A stretch of 23,313 nt of DNA. Origin: a virus. Taxonomy: Duplodnaviria > Heunggongvirae > Uroviricota > Caudoviricetes. A model generated the notes under the pieces. That model did no database searches. It had not been told where the DNA came from and saw only the letters and a list, made by a program, of their open reading frames with translations. Each line of letters begins with the position of its first letter. The first letter of the stretch is position 1. Below are positions 12,355 through 23,313 of the stretch, piece after piece. A program made the position numbers and the translations under genes. Location of the stretch: the IMG/VR virus record IMGVR_UViG_2602041905_000003, one strand, 5' to 3'.

Positions 12355-13571
12355 ATGGCTAACCAATTAGCAAAAGACCTTGAAATCATGTTCGAAAACT
12401 ACGTTGAAGGCTTTGAGGCCGCCTGCGTAGTTTCCCGTAACGCTAAAAAATTCCGTCCCGGTGATACAGCAATGCAGCGAGCAGGTGATGTTCTGTATCG
12501 TCCGCAGCATTACCACATGAATATTGAGGAAGGCCTCGACCTCAGCAGCAAAACGCCAACAGCACTGGTTCAGCGCCTTGTTCCTTCAGTGTTCAAGGAG
12601 CCGAAAAACATTCTGTACACTCTGGATGCGCGTGAAATGCGTGATCCGGAACATAAAACTGAAGCTGGTCGCGCCGCAGGTATGCGCCTTGCTGCACAGA
12701 TTGACTCTGACCTGATTTCCATGGTCACGCAGCGTGCTACTAACGTGATCACGATGGCTGACTCAACCGCAGGTACACAGGGCCGTGATTTGTGGAACTG
12801 TGCGGCAGGTATTGATGCCACCATGACGGCGATTGGTGTACCTCAGGGTATCAACCGTCGCTCTTTCTGGAACCCCTTCAACTACAAAGACCTTGCTGGC
12901 GAGCTTGGTCACCGTGCCTATGCTCAGGGCGCAACCCTGACAGCATACGAAAAAGCGCAAATCCCTCCGGTTGCGTCCTTCGATAGCTACAAGACCGATA
13001 TTTCTGGTCGATTACCGAAAGGAAGCACTGAATCCTTGACAGTATCAGGCCAACCTGAACACAAGGTTGAAGCGAAAGATTCAAATGGTATGCCAGTTGA
13101 TAACCGACAGGGGACTATTACGGTATCTGCATCTGGCTTGCAGGTTGGTGATGCGTTCACCATTGCCGGTGTGAATTCCGTACACCAGATCACAAAAGAT
13201 ACCACCGGTCAACCGCAGGTATTCCGTGTTCTGGCTGTTAGCGGAACTACCGTAACAATTTCTCCAAAGATTCTCCCTGTTGAAAATACTGATGTTGCGA
13301 GTCGTCCATATGCAAACGTCGATGCCAAACCGGCAGAATCAGCAGCAATCACCATTCTCAACAAGAACGCAGCACCTGCTAACCTCTTCTGGGCTGATGG
13401 TTCTGTTGAGCTGATGTACGGCAAACTGGCATTCCCGACAGGTCAGGGTCCACAGGTAATGACAGCAACCACCGAGCAGGGNNNNNNNNNNCCACTGCTC
13501 GTTTCACCACTCTGTACGGTTGCTCTGTACTTGTTCCTGAATATACGGGCATCGTTATTGCCGGGCAGTAA
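12355..13571 (+). CDS. Major capsid (coat) protein, P22 gp5-like; contains 10-N assembly gap at 13482-13491
   Basis: Translation resembles P22 coat (e.g. NLFWADGSVEL). After the N-run the correct frame reads ...TARFTTLYGCSVLVPEYTGIVIAGQ and stops at TAA 13569-13571; the track's extension to 13635 is a gap-induced frame artefact. Confidence 0.9.
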
Positions 13572-21552: not shown

Positions 21553-22002
21553 ATGTTTATGCTCACTTGTTTTGATGTCGCCGACTACTTCTTGGCGCAT
21601 TGCGATGAAGAAAGTGGCGACATTATCTCTAACCTAAAAATTCAGAAGTTGACGTATTATGCCCAAGGGTTTTCTCTGGTTCTTCTGGGTAAGCCGCTAT
21701 TTAATGAGAAAATTGAAGCCTGGATGCATGGGCCAGTAGTTCCTGAATTGTATCGTAAATATAGGGACTGTGGTAACGGAGCTTTACCTGCGCCAGAAAA
21801 CTTTGACGCTAAAAAATTCAGTGAAGATGAAATTGAATTGCTGGATGAGGTGTATAAAGTTTATGGTCAGTTTTCTGCCTGGAAACTGCGCAATATGACT
21901 CACGAAGAGCAGCCATGGAAAGATGCTTACATTGAGGGTGCGGTTAGCCAAGAAATCACACTTGATTCTATGAAAGGTTTTTTCAAAACGTTAATTAACT
22001 GA
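21553..22002 (+). CDS. Panacea-domain protein (DUF4065; GepA/SocA/PanA-like phage-associated antitoxin-type protein)
   Basis: Translation MFMLTCFDVADYFLAHCDEESGDIISNLKIQKLTYYAQGFSLVLLGKPLFNEKIEAWMHGPVVPELYRKY follows the conserved pattern I recall for COG3600/DUF4065 (...KLQKLLYFAQG...G.PLF...IEAW..GPV.P.VY). GGAGG at 21547-21551 suggests the real start may be the second ATG at 21559. Confidence 0.8.
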   Translation: MFMLTCFDVADYFLAHCDEESGDIISNLKIQKLTYYAQGFSLVLLGKPLFNEKIEAWMHGPVVPELYRKYRDCGNGALPAPENFDAKKFSEDEIELLDEVYKVYGQFSAWKLRNMTHEEQPWKDAYIEGAVSQEITLDSMKGFFKTLIN

Positions 22003-22007
22003 CGTGT

Positions 22008-22430
22008 ATGTCTAGAGTTAAGGGAAGAATAAAACAGAGGGATAAAGAGAGCTCTGCTACTGTTGGCCTCTCTATCCATCACGAATCTCATGATGTAGAC
22101 AAAAGTCCGCCTGTATTTTCTCTTAGATACCTACAAAAGGGGTATTGCCTAGATTGCTGCCAAAAGCATGAAAAGGCAGCATTTGCAGATAGGCTGTTCA
22201 GGTTAAGTCAGATGTCATGGGATGAGATACGAAAATCTGATAAACACGGGCTTGGGACGGAAAAAATTGCCAGAAACGCGATAAAGGCTCCGATTCCTAA
22301 GCATGTTACTCAAGATGTGGATTTCATTGCGTTCAGATTTTGCTCTAAGGCACCTATGGTTGGTTATAAGATAGGAGCCACTTTTTATGTCTTATGGCTC
22401 GACAGGGAGTTCAAGCTATACAAGCACTAA
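22008..22430 (+). CDS. Unclassified 140-aa protein co-transcribed with the Panacea gene (candidate toxin/effector partner)
   Basis: ORF begins 5 nt after the Panacea gene stop, same strand, followed by a strong terminator. No family recognised; start codon uncertain (no clear Shine-Dalgarno). Confidence 0.55.
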   Translation: MSRVKGRIKQRDKESSATVGLSIHHESHDVDKSPPVFSLRYLQKGYCLDCCQKHEKAAFADRLFRLSQMSWDEIRKSDKHGLGTEKIARNAIKAPIPKHVTQDVDFIAFRFCSKAPMVGYKIGATFYVLWLDREFKLYKH

Positions 22431-22482: not shown

Positions 22483-23019
22483 TCAAACAACCCACCAGTT
22501 TGCCTGATTGGATGCCAGCCTTGCAGTTTTTATGGAATTAATTATGCCATGCTCAAGAGCCTTGTTAGCATCCAAAATGGTCGAGTCTGCTATCAGGGAT
22601 GCCCACCTAATATGGGTTCCGATGTCGATATTGAACGTCTCAACGAAGCGATCAAGATCGTTATCGAGGCATTTCCCGTACTCTCTCAATCTGGCATGGT
22701 CGGCGGCTGGGGAGGCAAAGCCCCATAATAGAGGATGTAACAGGAATCTTGATAATGGGTTTGCGAAACGTTCTGAGCCAGCCAGGAAAACGATATTAGC
22801 TATGGATTCAACATTGCTTATGTTGTGAGTTCTAACGGTAACAGGGAGTGACTTAAGAAAGTTATACGCAGTAAAGCCAGCGGCAGTTTCCCCTCCCTGA
22901 CTTGATATATGGATATTTAATTCAGTTGCGCCTTGAGATAATGCGGTGAGACAGTGGTTCTGAAGTTGCCCAACAGTGGCAGTGTTAACGGGGCATAAGA
23001 AATGAATTGTGTGCAGCAT
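22483..23019 (-). CDS. ClpP-fold serine protease-like protein (truncated S14-type, 178 aa)
   Basis: Translation aligns by eye with E. coli ClpP core: IHISSQGGETAAG vs INSPGGVITAG; NVESIANIVFLAG vs GQAASMGAFLLTAG (Ser retained); RFANPLSRFLLHPLLWG vs RFCLPNSRVMIHQPLGG (His retained); later Asp retained. Lacks about 60 N-terminal residues of canonical ClpP. ATG overlaps the upstream RHH gene stop (TAATG). Confidence 0.75.
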   Translation of the reverse strand: MLHTIHFLCPVNTATVGQLQNHCLTALSQGATELNIHISSQGGETAAGFTAYNFLKSLPVTVRTHNISNVESIANIVFLAGSERFANPLSRFLLHPLLWGFASPAADHARLREYGKCLDNDLDRFVETFNIDIGTHIRWASLIADSTILDANKALEHGIINSIKTARLASNQANWWVV

Positions 23020-23267
23020 TATTTTTCATCCTTACCATACATGGTCTTTAGCGTCTCAAGCAGCGCCTCTTTGAATTTGTCAGCTTCTTGCTGAGCAAAT
23101 GACTCAACTGACTTTGGCGACCTATCTTCATCAATCGCGGCTTGCAAAATCATGACGATCTCGGAGTTAACAGAGCGACCATTTTTTGATGCTCTGACAG
23201 CAAGAGCCTCGCGTAAAGATTCAGGGATTCTTACCGTAGTTGGAGAAATTGACACACCCTTTGCCAT
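23019..23267 (-). CDS. Ribbon-helix-helix transcriptional repressor, Mnt/Arc-like
   Basis: 82 aa; N-terminal ...TVRIPESLREALAVRASKNGRSVNSEIVMILQAAIDE matches the Arc/Mnt RHH signature (NGRS.NSE) and is Mnt-like in length; AAGGTG Shine-Dalgarno upstream on the - strand. Confidence 0.8.
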   Translation of the reverse strand: MAKGVSISPTTVRIPESLREALAVRASKNGRSVNSEIVMILQAAIDEDRSPKSVESFAQQEADKFKEALLETLKTMYGKDEK

Positions 23268-23313
23268 ATCACACCTTTGGTATTCAATTTGATATCAAAG
23301 TGTATGCAAAAAA

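Follow-up and report, generated by a model that had tools for sequence, protein, structure and literature searches.

The repressors Mnt and Arc are the classic models of how ribbon-helix-helix (RHH) proteins read DNA. RHH dimers such as those of Arc and Mnt insert a two-stranded beta-ribbon into the major groove, and Mnt forms a tetramer through its C-terminal region. In phage P22, O-arc is a 21-bp operator located between the -35 and -10 elements of Pant, where two dimers bind half-sites that are about one helical turn apart. RHH antitoxins, such as FitA, also bind as dimers to short inverted repeats that overlap their own promoter, and this results in autoregulation. With reference to the genome paper of phage epsilon34, the P22 version of the immI region is the sole one that has been studied (PMC2629481), and our literature search returned no paper on the palindrome sequence considered here or on immI operators other than those of P22.

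In this study, a 12-bp palindrome near the end of a 23,313-nucleotide stretch of phage DNA (the whole stretch is hereafter called the window) was investigated together with the RHH gene beside it. As judged from sequence comparison, the palindrome is probably the core of the principal operator of a Mnt-like RHH repressor, in what would be a heteroimmune variant of P22 immI. Most likely, the element represents a new specificity and a somewhat different layout within a textbook system, and no new kind of element.

The immI-type region around the palindrome

The last 2 kb of the window are 100% identical to several E. coli chromosomes, and the reading was continued past the window end in locus L001 of E. 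coli PA45B (window coordinate = L001 + 15312; the window ends at L001 8001, within the regulatory part of a complete P22-type immI module). The leftward part of this locus carries the injection-protein genes, a Panacea-domain gene with its partner, and the ClpP-like and RHH genes, both on the minus strand. Beyond the 114-bp intergenic region at L001 7956-8069, the rightward part carries on the plus strand a 50-aa Arc-family gene, a 57-aa ORF, ant and the tailspike gene. The divergent small protein, WP_000410001.1, is 39% identical to P22 Arc. A sar RNA homologue (Rfam RF00262), detected at full length across the ant start with 76.6 bits against a gathering score of 43, is flanked on its own strand by a promoter-like sequence and a terminator-like hairpin (Table 1). 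From the injection genes to the tailspike gene, the genes follow one another in the order and orientation of P22 immI, with which this locus also has the divergent arc homologue, sar RNA and ant in common. Since a Mnt homologue, an Arc homologue, sar RNA and a divergent strong promoter-like site are all present, the layout is that of a P22-type immI, and the palindrome most likely forms part of immI (antirepressor control) in a P22-like prophage of E. coli. An earlier note on this DNA had supposed a P22 mnt/ant-like arrangement beyond the window end, and the continued reading bears this out, as the divergent promoter TTGACT-17-TGcTATCTT is followed by the Arc homologue, sar and ant. The 57-aa ORF (phrog_17642), which is placed between the arc-like gene and ant and overlaps the arc-like stop codon, occupies a position where P22 has no gene.

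The RHH gene had been called Mnt-like from the window letters, and our comparisons agree with that name. Its product matches the Pfam Arc domain (9.6e-11), has 1MNT as its best PDB match (E 2.3e-6, aligned over residues 12-73), and shares 36% identity with P22 Mnt in an alignment of 74 residues that takes in the C-terminal region (pairwise E 8e-14). The FitA-like_RHH model also matches (2.1e-8), and in the identical PA45B locus the gene is annotated as WP_001051912.1, 'Arc family DNA-binding protein'. P22 Arc has the same fold and belongs to the same family (Pfam Arc) as this protein. FitA-type antitoxins have a toxin partner, whereas none is adjacent to the Mnt-like gene, whose context is immI, and the C-terminal part of the protein resembles Mnt and not the toxin-binding tail of an antitoxin. 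The DNA-facing strand reads PTTVRIP here against HFNFRMP in P22 Mnt. The core of P22 O-mnt, CCACGGTGG, shares the pattern CAC-n-(G/T)TG with the operator candidates of this locus; with regard to the 17-bp O-mnt (AGGTCCACGGTGGACCT), CACGGTGGA was not found in the intergenic region even when one mismatch was allowed. The immunity specificity predicted from these sequences differs from that of P22.

Downstream of mnt lies a ClpP-like gene, and there is nothing like it in P22. Its ATG overlaps the stop codon of the Mnt-like gene (TAATG), and it is presumably co-transcribed with that gene and therefore under the same control. The same ClpP-like gene (98-100% identical) was noticed after three different Mnt-like N-terminal types and was absent from the other types examined; being found in some immI types only, it behaves like a mobile moron with its junction inside the 3' end of mnt. 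Convergent with it are a SocA/Panacea-domain gene (149 aa, Pfam 2.2e-24) and, 5 bp past it, a gene for a 140-aa protein (phrog_8366, no Pfam match), which together look like a Panacea antitoxin-toxin pair in an 'ant moron'.

The layout departs from P22 in the space between the divergent genes. The intergenic region measures 114 bp here and 90 bp in P22, the mnt ATG stands 27 bp farther from the Pant -35 than it does in P22, and the palindrome falls within this extra DNA. Its centre lies 23.5 bp upstream of the Pant-like -35, on the side of mnt, whereas P22 O-mnt is on the arc side, over the Pant start. Located in the extra DNA upstream of the Pant-like -35, the palindrome is therefore not the positional equivalent of P22 O-mnt, and its place on the other side of Pant argues against a simple equivalence of the two sites. 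In P22, O-arc lies in the Pant spacer and Pmnt overlaps Pant on the opposite strand, whereas the promoters here stand back to back. Because they do not overlap, there is no need to suppose that Mnt activates Pmnt indirectly as in P22; of the two modes, direct autorepression is the likelier at this locus.

Where P22 has O-mnt, this locus displays CTTTTGTATTCGAAAAG, a 17-bp imperfect palindrome with 6 of 8 pairs matched. It shares CTTTTGTATTC (10/11) with CTTTGGTATTC, which is found beside the mnt-like Shine-Dalgarno sequence. As a P22-like operator, CTTTTGTATTCGAAAAG was rejected, since it is polymorphic in close relatives and Serratia has GTATTC-N5-GAATAC instead; a secondary or Arc-related site is possible.

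Promoters were sought with a sigma-70 weight-matrix scan, in which the annotated Pant and Pmnt of P22 come out as top matches. In the mnt direction, the best candidate is TTTGCA-17-TTGAAT, which is weak (score 8.3) and absent from the output of a stricter scan. The TTG of its candidate -35 is invariant across the immI types that use the same scaffold (invariant columns C43, A44-A50). The palindrome falls in the spacer of this best candidate, and binding there would therefore be autoregulatory; either way, a protein on the palindrome would cover the core of the sole plausible mnt-like promoter.

Table 1. Positions of features in the window and in the adjoining part of locus L001 (window coordinates unless L001 is named)
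Feature	Position	Strand	Details and basis
SocA/Panacea-domain gene	21553-22002	+	Pfam
140-aa gene	22008-22430	+	phrog_8366
ClpP-like gene, 178 aa	22483..23019	-	Pfam CLP_protease 4.8e-12; PHROG head-maturation protease/ClpP families
Mnt-like repressor gene, 82 aa, N-terminal RHH	23019..23267	-	ORF list, Pfam, PDB, P22 alignment
Shine-Dalgarno AAGGTG of the Mnt-like gene	23272..23277	-	direct reading
36-bp imperfect palindrome	23276..23311 (L001 7964-7999)		18-nt arms, 14/18 complementary (28/36), no gap; repeat finder
Candidate -10 TTGAAT of a mnt-like promoter (weak)	23282..23287	-	abuts the palindrome; candidate from the weight-matrix scan
18-bp near-palindrome, CAATTTGAT then ATCAAAGTG	23285..23302		16/18 symmetric
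12-bp palindrome TTTGATATCAAA	23288-23299		direct reading of the letters
Inverted-repeat arm GATATCAAAGTG (12 nt)	23291..23302	+	repeat finder
Candidate -35 TTTGCA / TTGCAT of a mnt-like promoter	23304..23310	-	candidate
Pant-like promoter TTGACT-17-TGcTATCTT	starts 4 bp past the window end	faces arc	consensus match, highest weight-matrix score in the region
Partner CACTTTGCTATC of the inverted-repeat arm	L001 8020-8031		
17-bp imperfect palindrome CTTTTGTATTCGAAAAG	L001 8031-8047		
57-aa ORF	L001 8219-8392	+	phrog_17642
sar RNA homologue	L001 8388-8454	-	Rfam RF00262
Terminator-like hairpin flanking sar	L001 8422-8391	-	
Promoter-like TTGATA-17-TGnTATACT flanking sar	L001 8490-8462	-	

Symmetry of the site and its inverted copy

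The perfect palindrome reported in the earlier note is exact in both letters and coordinates, TTTGATATCAAA being its own reverse complement, and the distance of about 20 bp to the RHH start codon is likewise correct, as 20 bp separate the ATG from the palindrome. Perfect symmetry stops just outside the 12-mer, with a at 23287 and g at 23300. The 12-mer is nevertheless the centre of the 36-bp imperfect palindrome, whose outer flanking pairs are symmetric in 8 of 12 cases (P ~0.006). The 18-bp near-palindrome consists of two head-to-head copies of the 9-mer CACTTTGAT, with CAATTTGAT on the plus strand and CACTTTGAT on the minus strand. Matches to this 9-mer occur at intergenic index 18 (+) and 27 (-), which is the palindrome, and at 65, which is the Pant -10, where a third copy, CACTTTGCT, lies across the extended -10 of the Pant-like promoter. 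A search for another copy beyond position 23313 had also been proposed, and such a copy is present: CACTTTGCTATC lies 29 nt from GATATCAAAGTG, is 11/12 (92%) complementary to it, and covers the extended -10 of the divergent Pant-like promoter. An inverted copy of this quality has P ~0.03 in random sequences of equal composition. The octamer TTTGNTAT is clustered as well, with three of its four occurrences in the window falling in the last 50 bp and one more at the second copy. The putative functional unit is larger than 12 bp.

One perfect 12-bp palindrome is observed in the 23.3 kb (N runs aside), against about 5.5 expected from composition, and a Markov-1 simulation without N runs gives 5.9 +/- 2.4 per window, so that the window is, if anything, depleted in such palindromes. 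One or more perfect 12-bp palindromes would arise by chance in the 114-bp A+T-rich intergenic region with a probability of ~0.05. The two N runs of the window, 10 each (2642-2651 and 13482-13491), yield spurious palindromes and distort naive simulations. As the 12-mer itself is not rare, the case rests on its context, that is, the extended symmetry, the inverted second copy, the clustered TTTGNTAT octamers and the position-matched type-specific repeats in relatives; each single statistic is modest (P 0.006 to 0.05). An RNA hairpin or terminator was considered and rejected, since a loop-free 12-nt palindrome forms at most a 4-bp A/T stem, and a scan of L001 7700-8500 for terminator-like sites found none at the palindrome.

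Variation among related loci and competing readings

A protein scan of viral contigs yielded 80 related loci, and a scan of genome contigs yielded one extra locus, from Serratia. The same-type set comprises 34 viral contigs whose repressor is essentially the same and whose intergenic region is 114 bp long, with 15 variable columns. Eleven of the 12 palindrome positions are invariant in this set; the remaining one, 23295, varies more than any other column of the intergenic region (T in 20, G in 14), so that 14 of the 34 loci read TTTGATAGCAAA in place of TTTGATATCAAA. Perfect symmetry is therefore dispensable, and because most intergenic columns are invariant among close relatives, the conservation of the other 11 bases says little. 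In the Serratia locus, where the repressor is 79% identical and has the strand PTTIRIP, the perfect palindrome and the second copy are both kept. The earlier note had made its operator reading depend on conservation in homologous loci, and a loss from such loci is not what is seen: the sequence is largely kept, up to a perfect palindrome in Serratia, with the symmetry broken in 14 of the 34 loci.

The base of the second copy that matches 23295 (L001 8027) is C in 30 and A in 4 of the same-type loci. The palindrome copy accordingly reads GATATC in 20/34 and GATAGC in 14/34, and the Pant -10 copy GCTATC in 30 and GATATC in 4. All four loci with GATATC at the Pant -10 have GATAGC at the palindrome, and GATATC at both sites was found in 0 of 34; this reciprocal polymorphism may have arisen by chance, by gene conversion or through selection against two sites of the EcoRV type. 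The variant core of the 14 loci is presumably identical to the FitA half-site, TGCTATCA.

Other immunity types use the same promoter scaffold, the invariant AGTGTAnnCAAAAAAAnTTTGnCT with the -35 included, and have their own palindromes at the same place; a DNA pattern scan with this scaffold disclosed no further immunity type. These heteroimmune P22-like contigs (IMG/VR L037, L118-L131 and L038-L048), with repressors 63-80% identical, show the same site positions, and each type is marked by a repeated 9-mer and a palindrome of its own, GTGATATCAC, GTGATAATCAC or CTACACAGTGTAG. Each immunity type scores low on the 9-mers of the others (Table 2). In L118 and L037, 9-mers of the CACnGTGAT type are found at the same two positions as the halves of the palindrome. 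In L037, which carries GTGATATCAC twice, this sequence stands at the palindrome's exact distance from the -35, and TGTGATATCACA is found again directly after the Pant -10, in the place of P22 O-mnt. The contigs L038-L048 have near-equal Mnt-like and Arc-like strands (PLGIRIP/PLGIRIP or PMGIRVP/PLGIRLP) and four to seven CAC-n-GTGTA sites, which suggests operators common to both repressors, in the manner of CI and Cro. The Arc-like ORF of the seven contigs L125-L131, which belong to the L118 immunity type, has 36 aa (...SFNSEVM) against 50 aa, and this gene may be degraded.

Table 2. DNA-facing strands and repeated 9-mers of the immunity types (copies counted in the intergenic region with at most one mismatch)
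Locus	Mnt-like strand	Arc-like strand	Repeated 9-mer	Copies
Window type	PTTVRIP	SKILVRMP	CACTTTGAT	3
L197	PTTVRIP	SRILVRMP	CACTTTGAT	3
L083 (Serratia)	PTTIRIP	SKTLIRMP	CACTTTGAT	3
L118	PYSVRMP	SRILVRMP	CACnGTGAT	6
L037	PYGVRMP	DCIVRMS	CACnGTGAT	5
L038	PMGIRVP	PLGIRLP	CACnGTGTA	7
L039	PLGIRIP	PLGIRIP	CACnGTGTA	5
P22	HFNFRMP (Mnt)	QFNLRWP (Arc)	CACgGTGGA	2

These variations also bear on the other readings of the palindrome. The first supposes promoter sequence only, in which the palindrome would be the spacer or the extended -10 (TGaTATCAA, minus strand) of a mnt-like promoter with no repressor recognition, and its likeness to TGcTATCTT would reflect two similar promoter cores placed back to back. 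Both copies indeed read TTTG-n-TATC, and their sole polymorphic base is the 'n' of TGn (23295; L001 8027), which is free in an extended -10. The Pant-like copy coincides with a high-scoring -10, and the GATATC core is common to three types with different repressor strands. However, TATCAA is without the conserved final T of a -10 and has no -35 at the right distance, and the weight-matrix scan prefers TTTGCA-17-TTGAAT, which leaves the palindrome in the spacer, though neither candidate is strong. Promoter sequence also leaves unexplained the shared CAC(T)TT flank, the 36-bp symmetry, and the change of the flank to CACnGTG at all copies together with the change of the Mnt-like strand. We consider this reading unlikely as a full account; since operators usually overlap promoter cores, it is compatible with the operator reading.

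The second supposes an operator of the Arc-like protein and not of the Mnt-like one, which we judge to be quite improbable. L197 and L118 share the Arc-like strand SRILVRMP, yet they differ in the Mnt-like strand and in the 9-mer, CACTTTGAT and CACnGTGAT respectively, whereas L118 and L037 have similar Mnt-like strands and the same 9-mer in spite of the quite different Arc-like strand of L037, DCIVRMS. As the repeated 9-mer changes with the Mnt-like strand and not with the Arc-like one, it goes with the Mnt-like protein. It is the Pant spacer, GATATAnTCAC, that varies with the Arc-like type; this spacer is the place of P22 O-arc, and O-arc in P22 behaves in the same way. The Arc-like operator of this phage is likely a separate sequence in the Pant-like spacer past the window end (AGATATACTCAC...). 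What speaks for Arc is the presence of one copy in each promoter: in P22, a single operator, annotated as spanning Pant and Pmnt, serves Arc to repress the two promoters, and two related copies would be expected here because two non-overlapping promoters would need one Arc site each. The nearly equal Arc-like and Mnt-like strands of L038 and L039 also indicate that shared sites occur in the family. The covariation itself comes from three to four independent immunity types sharing the scaffold, and since the sites on the mnt side are in physical linkage with that gene, part of it may be co-inheritance; the sole copy free of this objection is the one at the Pant -10.

Lastly, a chance palindrome in A+T-rich intergenic DNA, or a mere EcoRV (GATATC) site, with no regulatory role is very improbable. 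It is true that 5.5-5.9 are expected per window, that P is ~0.05 for the intergenic region and that the symmetry is broken in 41% of close relatives. Chance is unlikely, however, to have brought together the extended symmetry, the second copy and the type-specific palindromes that four other immunity types have at matching positions, and the window avoids such palindromes (1 observed against ~5.9 expected).

A putative Mnt-like operator and its meaning

We prefer the reading of the palindrome as the core of an operator of the Mnt-like repressor. In this model, Mnt-like dimers would place their beta-ribbons in the major groove at the 9-mer repeats, and, as in P22 Mnt, the C-terminal region would probably hold the dimers together as tetramers. 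The protein would bind an 18-36-bp quasi-symmetric site centred on the palindrome. In one register, a single dimer would sit on TTG-N4-CAA (also TTG-N4/5-CAA), flanked by quasi-sites 11-11.5 bp away; in the other, two dimers would sit on the two 9-mers, as in O-mnt. Occupancy of the palindrome would shut off the mnt-like/clpP-like transcript, so that the repressor would regulate its own gene negatively. With the weaker copy on the Pant-like -10 bound, possibly with help from the strong site 47 bp away, arc-ant would not be expressed in the lysogen. The spacing of 11-11.5 bp between the flanking quasi-repeats can be compared with that of the P22 O-arc half-sites, and just as O-arc lies in the Pant spacer, the palindrome lies in the spacer of the candidate mnt-like promoter; unlike O-arc, it tracks the Mnt-like protein. 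Two generic traits of RHH operators are present, as the repeats are found within or beside a promoter at about one-turn spacing and the site covaries with the beta-strand in three to four independent types.

A more far-reaching version, which we consider unlikely, is that immI is rewired here. A tripartite 36-bp high-affinity operator in the repressor's own promoter would be combined with a weak half-site on the Pant-like -10, 47 bp off, so that direct autoregulation would be coupled to cooperative, possibly looped, repression of ant, and the same operator would set the level of the mobile ClpP-like protease. If true, this would contrast with P22, where one operator at the Pant start serves Mnt to repress ant and indirectly to activate its own gene; defence or regulator turnover are possible roles of the protease.

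The site itself is a matter of routine regulatory-site annotation, and its main value is as a member of an RHH series. The strands PTTVRIP, PYSVRMP, PYGVRMP and PLGIRIP form a natural series on one shared promoter scaffold, with candidate sites that vary in one or two bases (CACtTTGAT, CACnGTGAT and CACnGTGTA). This series represents a simple, testable RHH recognition code, and it predicts immunity groups among the P22-like prophages of E. coli, Salmonella and Serratia.
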